A DNA stretch of 64,000 nucleotides, taken from assembly GCA_028715605.1 (NCBI GenBank), contig JAQURM010000006.1:59589-123588 (forward strand), given 5' to 3'. The position numbers and the translations under genes were made by a program. The notes under the pieces were generated by a model. That model worked only from the letters and a program-made list of their open reading frames with translations, was not told the DNA's origin and searched no databases. Of the stretch, positions 5,978-60,397 are shown piece by piece. This stretch comes from Desulfovibrionales bacterium (GTDB lineage: Bacteria > Desulfobacterota > QYQD01). The stretch's first letter is position 1; each line of letters begins with the position of its first letter.

Positions 5978-6463
5978 GTGGCCAGCAAACTCGTCGTCGG
6001 TATTGCAGATATGTGCGTAAGCAAGGACCCATCGGCTATTTTAATTACTTACTCCCTGGGGTCCTGCATCGGCGTGTCCATTTATGATCCTGTAGTCAAG
6101 GTGGGGGGATTGCTTCATCTAATGCTTCCGGAATCAAAGATAGCCCCTGATAAGGCAGAAAAAAATCCGTGCATGTTTGCAGATACAGGCGTGCCCTTGC
6201 TTTTCAAAGAGGCATATAAATACGGCGCTGATAAGAAACGCATGATAATTAAAATAGCCGGGGGGGGGCAGGTTATGGATGCCAGCGGCTTTTTCAATAT
6301 CGGCAAACGTAACTACATGGCCCTTCGCAAGATCTTTTGGAAAAATGACGTTCTTATAAGCAAAGAAGACATAGGTGGTAATGTCAACCGCACTATGCGC
6401 CTTGAGATAGGCACGGGGCGCGTCTATCTCAAGGTATCGGACAGCGGAGAGATAGAACTATGA
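5978..6463 (+). CDS. cheD: Chemoreceptor glutamine deamidase CheD
   Basis: CheD family: SLGSCIG with the catalytic Cys. Confidence 0.8.
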   Translation: MASKLVVGIADMCVSKDPSAILITYSLGSCIGVSIYDPVVKVGGLLHLMLPESKIAPDKAEKNPCMFADTGVPLLFKEAYKYGADKKRMIIKIAGGGQVMDASGFFNIGKRNYMALRKIFWKNDVLISKEDIGGNVNRTMRLEIGTGRVYLKVSDSGEIEL

Positions 6464-7293
6464 AAGATATCAGGACCATTACTAAAGATATCAAGGAATT
6501 GCCGCCACTTCCGGAAGTAGCTCAAAAGGTATTTTCCTTACTACATGACCCTAAAAGCAATGTTCAGGATCTGGTCAAGGTTGTACAGCTTGATCAGGCT
6601 ATGACGGCTAATATATTGAAATTATGCAATTCTGCATACTTCGGCCTGAAGAGAAAGATCAGTTCTTTGCAGGAGGCCCTGGTCTTGCTCGGCCATAAAA
6701 AATTACACGAGATTATTATGACAGACAACAGCAGTAAATATTATAAAAAAGTCGGCCTGGGTTATAACCTGGAAAAAGGCGAGCTCTGGAAACATTCTGT
6801 GGCCTGCGCCCTTCTTTCTCAGATATTGGTGCGAAAAACAGGCTTACCCGAAGATCCTTTCTTATTTAACGCCGCCCTCCTTCACGATATCGGCAAGGTG
6901 ATACTCAGCACTTACGTCAAGACAGAATATGATCAAATAATCAGGTTGGTTAAAGAACAGCAATATCCCTTTTTGCAGGCAGAAAAAGAGGTTATCGGGA
7001 TTGATCACGCCGAATTAGGGGGACGAATCGCTGAGGAATGGAATTTCCCCGGCGCCCTGGTAGAAGCGATTGCCCAACATCATACGCCTGATGCGGAGAA
7101 TTACATCTCCTGCATCGTTCATCTCTGTAATCTGATGACTATCATGATGGGTATCGGCACGGGTTATGGCCTCGCTGACTATGGGAAAGATGCTGTCATG
7201 AAAAAATTAGGTCTGAAAGAAAGACATCTCGAATCATGTATGGTTGAACTATGGCATGAACTCCAGAAGGCGGAAGACCTGCTCAAATGTTAA
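6460..7293 (+). CDS. HDOD domain signalling protein
   Basis: HD-related output domain pattern (HDIGK, AELGG). The gene sits inside the che operon. Confidence 0.6.
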   Translation: MKDIRTITKDIKELPPLPEVAQKVFSLLHDPKSNVQDLVKVVQLDQAMTANILKLCNSAYFGLKRKISSLQEALVLLGHKKLHEIIMTDNSSKYYKKVGLGYNLEKGELWKHSVACALLSQILVRKTGLPEDPFLFNAALLHDIGKVILSTYVKTEYDQIIRLVKEQQYPFLQAEKEVIGIDHAELGGRIAEEWNFPGALVEAIAQHHTPDAENYISCIVHLCNLMTIMMGIGTGYGLADYGKDAVMKKLGLKERHLESCMVELWHELQKAEDLLKC

Positions 7294-31075: not shown

Positions 31076-31106
31076 CTATAGGCAACGTCACTGGTCAATA
31101 GTCAAA

Positions 31107-31276
31107 GTCAATTTCTCACGCAAAGGCGCAACGACCGCGAAGTAAAAATGAAAATCTGGAAATCAAGAAATCAGGAATAAAAGATTTTTTCATGAGTTCC
31201 TGAGTTCCAAATCTTATTCTTTTTGCGTCGTTGGCGGCCTTGCGTGATATTTTGGACTTTTTACGAGATTGTCAAC
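31107..31276. repeat. MITE-like repeat family A, copy 2
   Basis: About 95% identical to 1270-1439. Confidence 0.8.
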
Positions 31277-35627: not shown

Positions 35628-36722
35628 TTACTGTTTCTCCAGCATTTTTAGCGTAGCCTCGTAAACCTCTTTCGTCGTAATCTCTTTCATGCAGCGAAAG
35701 TCTGCCGGACAGACCGTTTTCAGGCAAGGGCTGCAATCTATATCCTTGCGCAGGATCACGGCCCGGTCTGAAAATGGCCCGGTAGTCACCGGATTGGTAG
35801 AGCCGAAGATGGCCACCAGGGGAACATGCAGGGCTGCGGCTACGTGCATCAGGCCTGAATCGTTGGTAATGAAGACCCGGCAACAGGCCATCAAGGCCAT
35901 GGCCTGGCCCAAGGTGGTCTTCCCTGCCATATTGATCACTCGCCCCGATGCCGCGGCTAAGGCCCCCTCCCCTACTTTTCTATCCGCATTAGTCCCAAAA
36001 ATGACTACCCTGGCATCCGCCTGTTTTGTAAGCATCCCGGCCAATTCCACAAAACGTTCCGGCAGCCACCTTTTGGCCGGGCCATAAGAAGCGCCGGGGT
36101 TGATACCGATCAGTTTATTCTCATCTGAAAATCCCCCCTCACCCCCCATTTTTAAAGTGGGAATTAGAGGGAGGAGCGCCTTCCGTGCCCAGGCGATATC
36201 ATCAGGTGCGGGTTTTAAAAAAAGCTGCGGCTTTTGCTCCACCTCCAGGCCCAGGCCTTCCAGCATACGGAGGTAGTAATAGACCTGATGTATCTTCTTT
36301 GTCTCTTTTTTCAGAGGTACGCTATGTGTCAGTAGAAGACTTCGTGCATCCGTATTATAACCGACACGCCTTGGGATGTGCGCCAGATAGGCCAACCAGG
36401 CCGCTTCAAAGGCATTTTGCAGTAGGAAAGCCAGGTCAAAGCCTTCGTCGGCCAATTCCCTGGCCAGACGTGCCTGCCCACGCAAACCCTTGTGGCTATG
36501 CATGCTGTCATAGACAATAATATGATCGATATAGGGATTGGCGGCAAAGACATCTTTGACCCAGGGCTTGGCCAGGATACTTATCTTCGCATGAGGGAAA
36601 TTTTGCCGGATGGTCTTAACCGCCGGAGTGGTTATTATGGCGTCGCCAATCCAGTTGGTGGATCGGATAAGGATATTCTTAATGTTTTTGTCTTGTTTCA
36701 GTTGCATTAGATGCCCATACAC
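35628..36722 (-). CDS. waaF: ADP-heptose:LPS heptosyltransferase II
   Basis: LIRSTNWIGDAIITTP...ILAKPW matches the WaaF N-terminus. It contains a short in-frame G-tract repeat insertion (MGGEGGFSDE). Confidence 0.75.
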   Translation of the reverse strand: MYGHLMQLKQDKNIKNILIRSTNWIGDAIITTPAVKTIRQNFPHAKISILAKPWVKDVFAANPYIDHIIVYDSMHSHKGLRGQARLARELADEGFDLAFLLQNAFEAAWLAYLAHIPRRVGYNTDARSLLLTHSVPLKKETKKIHQVYYYLRMLEGLGLEVEQKPQLFLKPAPDDIAWARKALLPLIPTLKMGGEGGFSDENKLIGINPGASYGPAKRWLPERFVELAGMLTKQADARVVIFGTNADRKVGEGALAAASGRVINMAGKTTLGQAMALMACCRVFITNDSGLMHVAAALHVPLVAIFGSTNPVTTGPFSDRAVILRKDIDCSPCLKTVCPADFRCMKEITTKEVYEATLKMLEKQ

Positions 36723-37927
36723 TCATCAATAAAAGAAGAAAAATCAGATTCAAAGGTAATTTCTGTCCTTAATACTCCGATAGGGATCTTTGCTCCAATC
36801 CGTTTATCAATTTTAACAGCGTCTTTTTCTGTAGTGATTATAAACTCCGCGCCTTTTCTGGCGGCCCTCTCCTCGATCTCTTCCAGGTCACCTCTATGAT
36901 AATCATAGTGGTCACGATAAGCTATAAGATCAACCAGATCAATATCTAAACGAATCAGCATCTTTCTGAAAGACTCGGGATGGGCTATACCACAAAAGGC
37001 AAGGGCCTTCTTTCCTTTTAGTTCTGATAGGTTATGTGATGCCTTTTCATCTGAAAATCCCCCTATATCCCCCTTTTCCAAAGGGGGAATTGATGGGCCC
37101 CCGTCTTTCCCCAAAGGGGGACTTAACGTATCCCCCCCTTTACTAAAGGGGGGTGAGGGGGGATTTTCATTGTCCTTTGTCCGCCCAAGGCGGATGAATG
37201 TTTCGTTCAACAAATAGAAGGAAACCGGTTTGCAATAACTTATAAAAACCGGCCTATCAGGGAATTCTCTATGTAAAAAGAGCCTTAATTTTTCAACGGT
37301 AGATTCAGTGCCTTCCTCCGCATAGGTCAAAATAAAGGCATCCGCACGCTTAAGCGCTGAAAGGGGTTCGCGTAAGGTTCCGGCCGGAAATACCTGCCCA
37401 TTTCCAAAGGGGTTGACGGTCCGGAGAAGGAGGATATTTAGATCTCTGGCCAATCCCAAGTGTTGGTAGCCATCATCAAGTAAAACCACATCAGGGCTAA
37501 AATCTTCTATGGCCCTCATCCCCACCGGAAACCGCTTTTTACCGATAAGAAGCGGGACACCCGGAAGACTGCTGGCCATCATGAACGGCTCATCTCCGGC
37601 CTCATCCGGACCAAGAAGGATGTGCCGGCCGTCAGAGACGACGGATACGGGGCCCTTATTTTTCGCCTTATAACCCCGGCTCACTATGGCAACCCTTTTA
37701 CCCCTGCCTTGCAGGTATCTGGCCAGCCATATAGTCAGGGGCGTCTTTCCCGTGCCCCCCAGTGTCAGGTTGCCGATGCTAATGACCCGGCAGGGCAGAC
37801 TCCGGGTCTTAAAGAGACCAAAGTCATAAAGTTTTGCTCTCAATCTCATGATCTGGCCGTACAGATGGCCAAAGGGTAAGAGTAGAGTTACGAGTTGCGA
37901 GTTTCGGGTTGCGAGTTTTGGGTTCAT
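36707..37927 (-). CDS. lpxK: Tetraacyldisaccharide 4'-kinase LpxK, with an in-frame insertion of about 45 aa
   Basis: GNLTLGGTGKTP Walker A. The ORF is 406 aa against a usual ~330. A low-complexity Pro/Gly stretch is encoded by a palindromic element. Confidence 0.85.
   Translation of the reverse strand: MNPKLATRNSQLVTLLLPFGHLYGQIMRLRAKLYDFGLFKTRSLPCRVISIGNLTLGGTGKTPLTIWLARYLQGRGKRVAIVSRGYKAKNKGPVSVVSDGRHILLGPDEAGDEPFMMASSLPGVPLLIGKKRFPVGMRAIEDFSPDVVLLDDGYQHLGLARDLNILLLRTVNPFGNGQVFPAGTLREPLSALKRADAFILTYAEEGTESTVEKLRLFLHREFPDRPVFISYCKPVSFYLLNETFIRLGRTKDNENPPSPPFSKGGDTLSPPLGKDGGPSIPPLEKGDIGGFSDEKASHNLSELKGKKALAFCGIAHPESFRKMLIRLDIDLVDLIAYRDHYDYHRGDLEEIEERAARKGAEFIITTEKDAVKIDKRIGAKIPIGVLRTEITFESDFSSFIDECMGI
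37052..37169. repeat. G/C-tract palindromic element inserted in-frame in lpxK (gaaaatccccc ... ggggggattttc), with internal CCCCC-N-GGGGG hairpins
   Basis: The terminal inverted repeats are seen directly in the sequence. A shorter cognate lies at 36124-36175 inside waaF. Confidence 0.7.
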
Positions 37928-59832: not shown

Positions 59833-60030
59833 CGGATCTATTCCATCGGTCAGCTTTGGGCTTTCGACCTATAGTGCAAAGCCGAAAACGGGTATCTCAC
59901 AGATGGACACTATCTAATAACAAACAGGGTAAAAGTCAACTTTAACCGCTTTAAGTTAGCAGTCGAGCACAGGCAACCACGGTTATAAGCGTTTAAACTG
60001 GAGCTTCCTGACTTTTTAGAGAATTCCTAT

Positions 60031-60199
60031 GTTTCTGAGCGAAACTTGCTGGAGCAGTCCGCCTGAGGCGGATCGAGGGATAGCGGGAAGGGGAAAGTCC
60101 GCCTTAGGCGGAAAGGGGCAAACGTTCCCCGCCTGCGACTCCCGAAAGGGTCGCTGCGCAAGCCGTGAAGCGAAGAGACGAGGGGTTCCCTAAAGAAAC
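60031..60199. ncRNA. Unclassified structured RNA element, copy 2
   Basis: See the 61-239 entry. The differences between the two copies are compensatory within their hairpins. Confidence 0.5.
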
Positions 60200-60320: not shown

Positions 60321-60397
60321 CGGGACGTAGCGCAGCTTGGTAGCGCACCTGAATGGGGTTCAGGGGGCCGGAGGTTCAAATCCTCTCGTCCCGACCA
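60321..60397 (+). tRNA. tRNA-Pro (anticodon GGG)
   Basis: Acceptor stem CGGGACG/CGUCCCG. Anticodon loop AUGGGGU. T-loop GGTTCAAATCC. CCA is encoded. Confidence 0.85.

Follow-up and report, generated by a model that had tools for sequence, protein, structure and literature searches.

Selfish palindromes that lie in frame within housekeeping genes have hitherto been seen as a peculiarity of Rickettsia, shared with few other cases. The Rickettsia palindromic elements (RPEs) are small palindromic repeats, many of them in frame in unrelated housekeeping genes and others in intergenic DNA (Ogata et al. 2000, as related in PMC10969869 and PMC3184786), and these two accounts hold that RPE peptides are tolerated through being positioned without disturbing protein fold or function. 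BOX of Streptococcus pneumoniae is given in PMC3184786 (Croucher et al. 2011 cited there) as boxA-boxB(n)-boxC. REPs, which are extragenic by definition, have one end of the palindrome tagged with GTAG or CGTC (PMC3733652). Chunjie, a classical MITE, lies within an operon of a related deltaproteobacterial lineage and leaves the operon undisrupted (PMC3184786, PMC5896051, PMC10969869).

The segment analysed here interrupts lpxK in a 64-kb stretch of DNA, referred to as a whole as the window. It is very probably one copy of a modular, hairpin-rich, non-autonomous family of dispersed repeats, and most likely near-neutral selfish DNA. By analogy, the family appears to be a new one of a known kind that is typified by the RPEs.

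The host ORF is identified as LpxK by Pfam (PF02606, 3.4e-91) and by its match to the Aquifex LpxK structures 4EHW/4EHX (2e-56), and both the Walker A and DDGYQH motifs are kept (alignment A1). The gene lies in a cluster of the order msbA-like / waaA / lpxK / waaF / HAD phosphatase / GT9. An AlphaFold model of the protein superposes on 4EHY with a target-normalised TM score of 0.89 (0.86-0.89 over the Aquifex LpxK structures). Insert residues 248-293 have pLDDT values below 50 and their flanks values above 85, and the left-module peptide is modelled as a short helix. The prediction is thus of a disordered loop that leaves the rest of the LpxK fold intact, in agreement with the Pro/Gly-rich loop proposed in an earlier sequence-only reading of this DNA. 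The insertion point lies in a permissive surface loop, as that reading had expected, in the C-terminal part of LpxK. As its frame is conserved, the insert is presumably translated. The features of the locus are given in the table.

Features of the lpxK insert, its host gene and the related copy in waaF (positions in the window)
Feature	Position	Strand	Description
lpxK (tetraacyldisaccharide 4'-kinase)	36707..37927	(-)	406 aa, host gene of the insert
Whole composite insert	37045..37200	(-)	156 nt = 52 codons, residues 243-294, TFIRLGRTKDNENPPS...GGFSDE
G-tract module	37052..37169	(-)	outer stem arms around three ~33-nt hairpin units
Hairpin unit 1	37068..37088		TCCCCCTTT-TCC-AAAGGGGGA; 9-bp stem, 100% complementary; minus strand reads PPLEKGD
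Hairpin unit 2	37098..37120		CCCCCGTCTTTCCCCAAAGGGGG; imperfect; encodes SPPLGKDGG
Hairpin unit 3	37133..37153		CCCCCCTTTA-C-TAAAGGGGGG; 10-bp stem, 100% complementary; encodes PPFSKGG
Left-module hairpin	37180..37194		TCCGCC-TTG-GGCGGA in gene orientation; encodes part of ETFIRLGRTKDNE
Direct repeat TTTTCAT (ATGAAAA in gene orientation)	37044..37050		the element's 3'-terminal copy
Second TTTTCAT copy	37164..37170		120 nt from the first; junction of G-tract module and left module
Partial decayed waaF copy	36118..36165	(-)	last hairpin unit, right arm and AGATGAGAA; encodes PLIPTLKMGGEGGFSDEN

The boundaries of the composite were taken from DNA comparison of the window with three related loci (L001, L002 and L003). 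The element itself is as first described, with perfect 12-nt arms, three internal hairpins (unit 2 imperfect) and an in-frame position in a 406-aa LpxK. The insert extends past the right boundary then reported, to 37200, and includes the hairpin module at 37180-37194. It therefore joins a small covarying hairpin module to a G-tract module, with short direct repeats (GAAA; ATGAAAA) flanking; GAAA at 37045-37048 recurs at 37201-37204 and brackets the whole. The inverted arms of the G-tract module, TGAAAATCCCCC/GGGGGATTTTCA at 37052-37063 and 37158-37169, can be extended to 36 nt with 81% complementarity, its hairpin units are spaced at 33 nt (11 codons), and in the lpxK frame it reads ENPPSPPFSKGGDTLSPPLGKDGGPSIPPLEKGDIGGFSDEK. 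The left-module hairpin is followed by a conserved AAAGGACAAT. The true termini of the 156-nt composite are not inverted repeats, and the arms that had been taken for the ends of the element form the outer stem of a single module within the composite. All six matches to CCCCC-N(5-20)-GGGGG in the 64-kb window fall inside the G-tract element, against a chance expectation of 2.2 anywhere in it. Folded as single-stranded DNA the element reaches -35.2 kcal/mol, compared with -22.3 +/- 2.9 for shuffled sequences (z = -4.5; none of 200 shuffles equal). The Rfam 15 covariance models assigned the element to no family, the sole match being a chance-level one to Xist_exon1 (15.5 bits against a gathering threshold of 50), and detected only two tRNAs in the whole window.

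The inferred empty site in lpxK is TTG AAC GAA AAG GCA (LLN-EKASHN), and the loop of the outgroup LpxKs P0014 and P0016-P0019 has exactly this empty length. At the DNA level GGACAAC-GAAAA-GGCATC in L002 and L003 is matched in the window by GGACAAT-GAAAA-[element]-CAGAT-GAAAA-GGCATC. In close relatives (70-85% LpxK identity) the number of 33-nt units here ranges from 0 to about 6: 3-5 in the window and P0003-P0005, about 6 in P0002, and the G-tract module missing altogether in P0008, P0009 and P0013. The full composite occupies a second lpxK site, between DAVKI and KPI, in P0002, P0006 and P0008. Outgroup LpxKs, at 57% identity or less, are without any insert. The first site is common to at least five distinct MAG lineages with differing unit numbers, which speaks against the recent insertion originally suggested; the element entered lpxK in an ancestor of this clade, and the number of units changed later among the lineages. 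It also entered waaF, lpxK at its second site and numerous genes unrelated to these. The waaF gene (ORF 35628-36722), which encodes a GT9 heptosyltransferase, adjoins lpxK, and the shorter cognate reported there is confirmed, with 81% identity to the element over 48 nt; L002 and L006 carry intact hairpin versions at the same waaF site (PLIPPLKKGDTGGFSDEN).

These dispersed copies effectively refute a non-mobile origin, in which a lineage-specific low-complexity linker would have grown by replication slippage in a variable LpxK loop. The 33-nt tandem periodicity is compatible with such growth and the loop is variable in general (P0064 and P0102 have unrelated insertions in it), but near-identical DNA recurs elsewhere in lpxK (the second site), within waaF and many unrelated genes and, across different phyla, at gene starts and between genes. 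Slippage accounts for the change in unit number and not for origin or dispersal, and we give this explanation next to no weight.

An exact 21-mer of the left arm was found in at least 120 metagenome contigs and an exact 17-mer of the right end in at least 120 GTDB contigs. Among the GTDB matches listed there are 58 clear family copies, several Thermodesulfobacteriota, Nitrospirota and Syntrophaceae MAGs having multiple copies per genome. The hosts are uncultivated members of the Nitrospirota and of the Thermodesulfobacteriota, to which the source lineage, order BSN033, belongs, and the element is widespread in uncultivated bacteria of sediment and groundwater. Copies are small (57-300 nt), multicopy and dispersed, and lack a transposase gene. 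A literature search for the element sequence returned unrelated primers only. All carrier genomes are MAGs, in which repeats can mis-join contigs; the probability that the insert is a repeat-induced chimera of assembly or binning is nevertheless practically nil, as assemblies that are independent of one another and differ in study and source (NCBI, JGI, ENA) agree on the site, the intact lpxK flanks and the open frame. The sequence-only reading is upheld in its central point, a palindromic element, formerly or currently mobile, that left the reading frame unbroken: outgroups are without it, relatives vary in it, and unrelated genes and genomes carry many further copies, some of them at gene starts and some between genes.

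In the orientation of lpxK, a full copy begins with (AT)GAAA(C), a small stem-loop variable in sequence and conserved in pairing, and AAAGGAnnAT, continues with the outer stem GAAAAT(AAT)CCCCCC...GGGGGGATTTTC around 0-9 C/G-tract units of about 33 nt, and closes with AG and (AT)GAAA again. This composite recurs as a unit at the second lpxK site and in the UvrD, GT9 and MoeA genes, with asymmetric ends (GAAAC and the small hairpin on one side, GGATTTTCAG on the other). Solo G-tract modules exist (L046, L086), neighbouring units of head-to-tail arrays have a single GAAA(C) in common, and the orientation of copies is constant relative to the asymmetric flanking motif.

This layout bears on the proposal that the element is a classical MITE, that is, an IS deletion derivative moved in trans by a DDE transposase through its terminal inverted repeats, with a 5-7-bp target-site duplication. 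The perfect 12-nt arms, the ATGAAAA repeats that flank the G-tract module (and likewise the solo modules) and the small size, multiple copies and absence of coding capacity all count in favour. However, the composite that recurs at different sites has asymmetric ends and the inverted arms are therefore internal, and the constant orientation of copies and the sharing of GAAA(C) in arrays also count against a MITE. No IS bounded by GAAAATCCCCCC arms was seen in the approximately 0.5 Mb searched. MITE identity is thus not demonstrated, no cognate IS or transposase having been found, and we regard it as unlikely though far from negligible. Filled and empty states at the two lpxK sites show (AT)GAAA(A) repeats of 4-7 bp flanking copies. 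As nearly all subfamily copies are flanked by this motif, it may not have arisen by duplication but be a fixed target or belong to the element itself, and the repeats would fit a target-site duplication and an IS200/IS605-like 'target plus own 3' end' equally well.

Copies inside long ORFs make up 20 of the 58 GTDB-contig copies among the matches listed and 40 of 101 in an unbiased metagenome sample, where both orientations occur and encode similar peptides; the same reading frame is used by 18 of the 20. In-frame copies were found in genes for a class I aminoacyl-tRNA synthetase (IleRS-like), Mfd, LipA, FabZ, PBP1A, ApbE, LarC, a PD-(D/E)XK nuclease, Cas6, an HdrA-like protein, a GT1-TPR protein (two sites), UvrD, a GT9 protein and MoeA. 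Other copies lie in intergenic DNA of different phyla. The rarity claimed for such in-frame insertion holds for bacteria generally but not for this family, in which about 40% of unbiased copies lie in long ORFs. A word-indexed protein search with the insert peptide, a low-complexity query, gave one candidate (a MoeA fragment), and an exhaustive HMMER search gave 14 matches, of which the two to Ig and PKD repeat proteins were false.

Every genic copy has a length divisible by three and no stop in its host frame, a constraint on length that copies outside genes do not obey (length mod 3 = 8:5:4). This constraint would be unnecessary if the segment were removed or skipped, and so counts against its absence from the protein through intron or intein removal or through bypassing of the T4 gene 60 type, with the duplicated GAA codons as take-off and landing sites. 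The matching GAA-A triplets around a stable hairpin do lend the insert a superficial likeness to bypass elements, but no stop codon follows the putative take-off codon, and for removal the segment is far too small to be an intein or group I/II intron and has no Rfam match. We consider either route very improbable.

The left-module hairpin is itself conserved. Across 27 copies of it from many loci (consensus CA-TGAGCC-nnn-GGCTCA-CAAAGG), 91% of cells are paired, compared with 24-51% in slid controls, and five of the six pairs show compensatory changes; the covariation score of 0.53 exceeds that of shuffles (0.12) and was reached by none of 500. Intergenic copies show covariation too, which suggests that it reflects the element's own needs. 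These data weigh on the idea of exaptation, which the sequence-only reading raised. Under a full form of this idea the Pro/Gly-rich loop or the RNA/DNA hairpins would serve LpxK or the LPS operon (as a flexible tether, in mRNA stability or as an antisense terminator). Retention of the insert in frame in several lineages, the helix predicted for the left-module peptide, the covariation and an antisense terminator-like hairpin with a T-run could each be taken in its favour. On the other side, the G-tract module varies from absence to about 6 units among close relatives, more than 15 unrelated families of protein have the same peptide, at positions that do not correspond, the insert is modelled at low confidence, the waaF copy of the window is decaying, and covariation extends to intergenic copies. 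We found no evidence for exaptation and think it quite unlikely. An intrinsic-terminator role was rejected, as the sole terminator-like match is on the antisense strand and the count of such sites is at chance level. A G-quadruplex reading of the G-tracts was set aside, as matching C-tracts lie on each strand and hairpins should dominate.

At gene starts a further behaviour was seen. The terminal ATG of the element opens a long ORF in 17 copies, and in all ten gene-start copies checked with Pfam (nine of those 17 and L011) this ORF is a recognisable gene; for several of them (Epimerase, Response_reg, N_methyl, NTP_transferase, RadA zinc ribbon) the match to the family profile begins at its position 1-3 and within the first ten residues of the protein (1-10). 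Upstream remain the native Shine-Dalgarno (SD) sequence and ATGAAAC. In the unbiased superfamily sample flanks are diverse and gene starts show no peak at SD distance; 'SD + ATG' behaviour of the superfamily as a whole is thereby ruled out, and start-codon behaviour is limited to the ...ATTTTCAGATGAAA subfamily, the sample of which was fetched with an ATGA-containing pattern and may carry ascertainment bias.

When the ORFs of about 60 element-bearing loci were clustered all against all, ordinary multi-domain families alone emerged, with no recurrent transposase, RAYT or other gene. Translations of ORFs between inverted copies (L167, L232) are not recognisably transposase-like, and the 8-kb flanks of copies contain no RAYT gene flanked by repeats. 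A small GIY-YIG ORF beside the L001 copy was rejected as a partner, as it recurs in L071 flanked by a different repeat family. All ten matches in viral contigs are chance SD+ATG occurrences and none a family copy, giving no sign of a phage vector. With no transposase adjoining the copies, it is from distribution and polymorphism that mobility is inferred.

We propose that copies land beside (A)TGAAA, which inside genes would mostly read xAT-GAA-Axx (Asp/Asn-Glu-Lys) and at gene starts ATG-AAA. The element, a near-palindrome, would be free of stops in two of three forward frames and one reverse frame and would encode a Pro/Gly-rich peptide (NPPSPPFxKGGxGGFSDE), so that copies whose length is a multiple of three could persist inside genes as disordered loops. 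Start-codon copies could persist because the element end (GGGGGA-TTTTCAG-ATG) restores an SD-like motif and ATG. Slippage or recombination between the 33-nt repeats would shift the number of units. Mobilisation would occur in trans through an enzyme for which the covarying hairpins, asymmetric ends, fixed orientation to the flanking motif and head-to-tail arrays make a hairpin-recognising ssDNA transposase of HUH type (IS200/IS605 or RAYT-like) our best guess, in preference to a DDE transposase. For the cell the consequence is most likely near-neutral selfish DNA and not adaptation.

A bolder possibility, which we advance tentatively and judge somewhat doubtful, is that of an undescribed cross-phylum superfamily of 'translation-compatible' mobile palindromes, both orientations of which have evolved to read as a harmless Pro/Gly-rich loop and one end of which rebuilds a ribosome-binding site and ATG. 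It would colonise start codons and the interiors of essential genes (those for the IleRS-like synthetase, Mfd, PBP1A, FabZ and LpxK) of free-living bacteria, be moved by a hairpin-specific enzyme targeting (A)TGAAA, and continue to supply loop insertions on a large scale to the proteomes of uncultivated lineages from sediment and groundwater.

These results extend in-frame colonisation by palindromes to free-living Thermodesulfobacteriota and Nitrospirota, through a different, modular element, and the genes affected are central ones (lpxK, the IleRS-like synthetase gene, mfd, fabZ and a class A PBP gene). In MAG annotation, odd length differences, 'low-complexity' inserts and N-terminal extensions are given a simple, maskable cause. 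For protein evolution the copies are a natural experiment on how loops of essential enzymes tolerate 20-100 extra residues, and copy-number polymorphism of the 33-nt unit is a possible strain marker. The covarying hairpins, fixed flanking motif and lack of a known transposase make the hunt for a new mobilising enzyme a concrete task.

Among described systems, the palindromes in coding sequence of Nematomorpha mitochondria are likewise long inverted repeats with both arms translated, but they are organellar and gene-specific and not a dispersed family of many genomes (PMC6649704). Neisseria REP2 and Borrelia inverted repeats, as presented in PMC3184786, also directly precede genes and bring with them a ribosome-binding site and the ATG; in that account they differ in carrying a promoter, in not being found in frame inside genes and in their unrelated sequence. 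Classical MITEs (Correia, ERIC, Nezha, Chunjie, QMITE1/2) resemble the element in their inverted arms, the short direct repeats at their flanks, a small size, a stable fold and an occasional fusion to an ORF (PMC3184786, PMC5896051, PMC10969869), but their TIRs are true termini and often match a resident IS, whereas here the arms are internal to an asymmetric unit with no IS partner known. REP/REPIN sequences with RAYT are also short, GC-rich, imperfect palindromes in high copy, sometimes doublets forming longer hairpins (PMC3116915; PMC3733652), and their hairpin-specific HUH enzyme is the best mechanistic analogue; in contrast to REPs, the GTAG/CGTC tag is absent from the G-tract and left-module hairpins, about 40% of copies are genic, and no RAYT was found nearby. 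The likeness to BOX as outlined in PMC3184786 is one of architecture only, conserved end modules enclosing a variable short central unit (here 0-9 of about 33 nt), together with a MITE-like character, no known transposase and occasional ORF fusions; BOX is described there as mainly intergenic, of one genus and unrelated sequence, and without systematic in-frame occupation of essential genes. The RPEs, as portrayed in the sources cited for them, come closest in kind, as small palindromes without a transposase of their own, in frame in unrelated genes with a tolerated peptide and also intergenic. From RPE-1 to RPE-10, by hosts and published description, the present element is set apart as G/C-tract based; its minimal unit is about 57 nt, compared with the 105-150 bp given for RPEs, and it is built of modules, its 33-nt units varying in number. 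Its carriers are free-living anaerobes of at least two phyla rather than obligate intracellular Alphaproteobacteria, one subfamily sits exactly on start codons, and both orientations encode nearly the same peptide.

The 406-aa ORF encodes LpxK (Pfam 3e-91; similarity to Aquifex LpxK, 2e-56) and belongs to an LPS cluster whose order, in the window's 3' to 5' reading, is GT9, HAD phosphatase, waaF-like GT9, lpxK, waaA and msbA-like. The element lies within this ORF and in frame, as the sequence-only reading had claimed, and the PDB match to the protein falls into two parts (query 12-205 and 303-372) with the insert occupying the gap. An AlphaFold model built with A1, our alignment of LpxK homologues, had a mean pLDDT of 81.6; residues 248-293 are predicted with pLDDT < 50 and the flanks on both sides with > 85, while the left-module peptide appears as a low-confidence helix. 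Superposition of the model on structures of Aquifex LpxK gave a target-normalised TM of 0.86-0.89, and the Walker A and DDGYQH motifs are kept. From model fit and motifs, lpxK looks functional, its insert forming a predicted disordered loop within the enzyme's C-terminal part, in line with the loop expected earlier.

The palindrome first noticed at 37052-37169 (TGAAAATCCCCC...GGGGGGATTTTCA) is real. Its arms pair without a mismatch over 12 nt and are 81% complementary when extended to 36 nt, its three hairpins are spaced at 33 nt, it folds as ssDNA with z = -4.5 against shuffles, and all six CCCCC-N(5-20)-GGGGG matches in the 64-kb window fall within the lpxK element. Its boundaries had to be widened, because the upstream part of copies at a second lpxK insertion point, site 2 (ETHMSHGDTKDNE), has a counterpart in the window, ETFIRLGRTKDNE; the mobile unit is thus a 156-nt composite that joins a left module to the G-tract module. 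In gene orientation the empty lpxK site reads GGACAAC-GAAAA-GGCATC and the filled site GGACAAT-GAAAA-TCCCCCC...GGGGGATTTTCAGAT-GAAAA-GGCATC, and the whole composite is likewise bordered by GAAA on both sides. The shorter cognate reported in the adjoining waaF was also found. The terminator-like site is antisense to lpxK; such sites occur in the region at chance level.

Features of the window and states of the lpxK insertion point (site 1)
Feature	Position	Description
lpxK	36707-37927	minus strand
Composite element	37045-37200	156 nt
G-tract module	37052-37169	
Internal hairpin 1	37068-37088	
Internal hairpin 2	37098-37120	
Internal hairpin 3	37133-37153	
Small hairpin of the left module	37180-37194	followed by AAAGGACAAT
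Cognate in waaF	36118-36165	48 nt
Intrinsic-terminator-like site	37134-37171	+ strand; last hairpin + ATTTTCATTG
Repeat with GTCCGCCTNAGGCGGA hairpins	73-232; 60030-60185	~160 nt; about 91% identical
tRNA gene	60321-60394	
CGCAAAGGCGCAAAGACCGCGAAG... repeat	1282; 31119; 34754; 35487	31-35 nt
CGCAAAGGCGCAAAGACCGCGAAG... pair	1268-1439; 31105-31276	172 nt; 96% identity
GCTATCAGCTTTCAGC... arrays	16273; 18907; 39264; 46557	short; CAGC-containing, heptad-like
P0008, P0009, P0013	site 1	without G-tract module (..KDN-EKASHN..)
Window, P0003, P0004, P0005	site 1	3-5 units
P0002 (551 aa)	site 1	about 6 units
P0014, P0016-P0019 (52-57% identity)	site 1	loop length of the window's minus residues 243-294

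Three other repeats were seen in the window. The GTCCGCCTNAGGCGGA hairpins resemble that of the left module; their second copy lies just upstream of the tRNA gene, and Rfam holds no family for this repeat. The CGCAAAGGCGCAAAGACCGCGAAG... repeat occupies intergenic gaps, including those between LPS genes beside waaF. One GCTATCAGCTTTCAGC... array lies between msbA and waaA, and the motif also occurs upstream of an element copy at another locus (L107).

The closest LpxK proteins, aligned and compared with their DNA, form a presence/absence and unit-number series at site 1 (table; a unit is the ~33-nt hairpin repeat). P0001, from a 'Desulfovibrionales bacterium' MAG, is identical to the window's protein, and the contig of one relative bears the label Desulfobacterota order BSN033. 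The same element sequence occurs at site 2 (DAVKI|KPI) in P0002, P0006 and P0008. LpxKs at 52-57% identity lack the insert, and unrelated lineages carry unrelated insertions, not the same one: Ser/Pro/Thr-rich sequences occupy this loop in the distant P0064 (422 aa) and P0102 (Desulfonema ishimotonii, 388 aa). The loop is permissive and tolerates extra sequence in general. Other repeat families are nested at site 1 in P0012/P0015 and P0006/P0010, and the site, or the element resident there, attracts nested insertions. In A1 these inserts fall into two types: ...GKNVIARSEATWQS...SPSARNDKK, as is typical for repeats of the 'gtcattgcgag' family, and ...RDSRDGCPTTNGDFVISRTGVSP....

In the relative MAG151 (L001:6012-6963) about 950 bp is inserted between waaA and lpxK, where the window has 6 bp; besides an intergenic G-tract copy (6385-6465), this patch holds palindromic repeats of several other families and a GIY-YIG ORF of 86 aa. 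A homologous ORF lies between inverted GTCATTCCCGTGAAAACGGGAATCCAG hairpins at L071:1-800, a layout resembling REP-flanked RAYT genes, although the repeat family differs from that of the lpxK element.

Beyond lpxK the element is dispersed among unrelated genes and genomes, which together with the site-1 polymorphism supports the claim of mobility. The exact right-end 17-mer GGGGGATTTTCAGATGA, scanned against one genome per species, matched at least 120 contigs, and 58 of the matches listed are unmistakable family copies, carried by several Thermodesulfobacteriota MAGs, many Nitrospirota MAGs, a Syntrophaceae MAG and an unclassified bacterium, commonly with several copies in one genome. The remaining listed matches were rejected as chance SD+ATG in unrelated bacteria. 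A minimal copy reads GAAAATCCCCCC-TCA-CCCCCCTTT-AGT-AAAGGGGGG-ATG-GGGGGGATTTTC; variants lack the inner hairpin, have others (CCCTCTCCCC..GGGGAGAGGG), reach 9 units or form head-to-tail arrays. Twenty of the 58 listed copies lie within long ORFs, 18 of them in one frame (..GGFSDE..), 17 open a long ORF with their terminal ATG, and 21 are intergenic or otherwise placed. In-frame hosts are a class I aminoacyl-tRNA synthetase (IleRS-like), Mfd, LipA, FabZ, a class A PBP, ApbE, LarC (three genomes), a PD-(D/E)XK nuclease, Cas6 and an HdrA-like oxidoreductase; an exhaustive HMMER search that took the 54-aa insert as query added a GT1-TPR protein (two copies), UvrD, another GT9 protein and others, and a separate protein search a MoeA fragment. 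At L094 a minus-strand ORF for a 1449-aa hybrid histidine kinase contains two separate in-frame arrays of the element; about 9 units of 11 residues (PPLEKGxPSA...) follow one another in the longer array, the biggest expansion seen.

The left-arm 21-mer AATCCCCCCTCACCCCCCTTT, which carries no flank bias, matched at least 120 metagenome contigs. Among the matches listed, 40 of 101 assessable copies lie within long ORFs in both orientations (forward NPPSPPFxKGGxGGF, reverse PPIPPLxKGGEGGF), so that in this family in-frame insertion is not rare as first supposed, and the core hairpin is common to a wider superfamily with diverse flanks. The viral contigs scanned held no family copies.

Across 27 copies the left-module hairpin varies in sequence and keeps its pairing (91% of cells paired; compensatory changes in 5/6 pairs; covariation score 0.53 vs 0.12 in shuffles), against 24-51% paired when the 3' partner was slid by 1-3 columns. 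What is maintained is therefore pairing of the nucleic acid, and this holds for genic copies as well as intergenic ones. The minimal copy is stop-free in two forward frames and one reverse frame, the third forward frame beginning with TGA. Non-genic copies are unconstrained in length (mod 3, 8:5:4) and genic copies are, necessarily, in frame and open, as predicted by a selection filter on translated insertions; this pattern argues against splicing or translational bypass keeping the insert out of the protein. The element is probably near-neutral for its host, a reading that replaces the exaptation first suggested.

Full-length gene-start copies have a good SD followed by ATGAAAC (or ATGAATC, ATGAGTC) at the upstream end and GGGGGATTTTCAG-ATG-AAA... 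at the downstream end, where the element places GGGGGA 7 nt before the ATG. In all 10 copies checked against Pfam (nine of the 17 ATG-start copies plus locus L011) the terminal ATG opens a recognisable gene, and in several the profile begins at position 1-3 inside the first 10 residues (Epimerase, Response_reg, N_methyl, NTP_transferase, RadA zinc ribbon). The length of the element decides the role of the old ATG, which either is in frame and gives an N-terminal extension or opens a short ORF ending at a TGA that overlaps the new ATG (...GGIFR*), an arrangement resembling coupling. The retrieval pattern itself contains ATGA, which may bias this sample, and the unbiased superfamily sample (metagenome matches listed) lacks the SD-distance peak; gene-start behaviour is therefore claimed for this subfamily only, and is partly inference. 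A precedent exists in Neisseria REP2 and Borrelia repeats, which supply RBS and ATG (PMC3184786).

The MITE label is not demonstrated and needs correction: the real termini of the composite are asymmetric, and ORFs around copies at about 60 element-bearing loci included no recurrent transposase, nor, as judged from their translations, did those between inverted copies. A classical MITE moved by a DDE transposase is possible for the solo G-tract module. Over a DDE transposase we prefer, as a guess of low confidence, a hairpin-recognising single-strand transposase of HUH type (IS200/IS605 or RAYT-like), which is favoured by the asymmetric termini, the covarying hairpins, the constant orientation relative to the flanking motif and the single GAAA(C) common to neighbours in head-to-tail arrays. 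Copies probably land preferentially next to (A)TGAAA, and unit number may change by slippage or recombination.

Rfam gave no match to the family and a full-text literature search by element sequence did not find it; within the limits of the literature searched it appears undescribed. Its significance lies in how broadly it affects essential genes and phyla, and in the question of the mobilising enzyme. Rickettsia palindromic elements are nearest in behaviour (PMC10969869, PMC3184786) and pneumococcal BOX elements in architecture. REP/REPIN-RAYT systems are nearest in likely mechanism, but are distinguished by a GTAG/CGTC tag and an extragenic location that the lpxK element family does not share (PMC3116915, PMC3733652).
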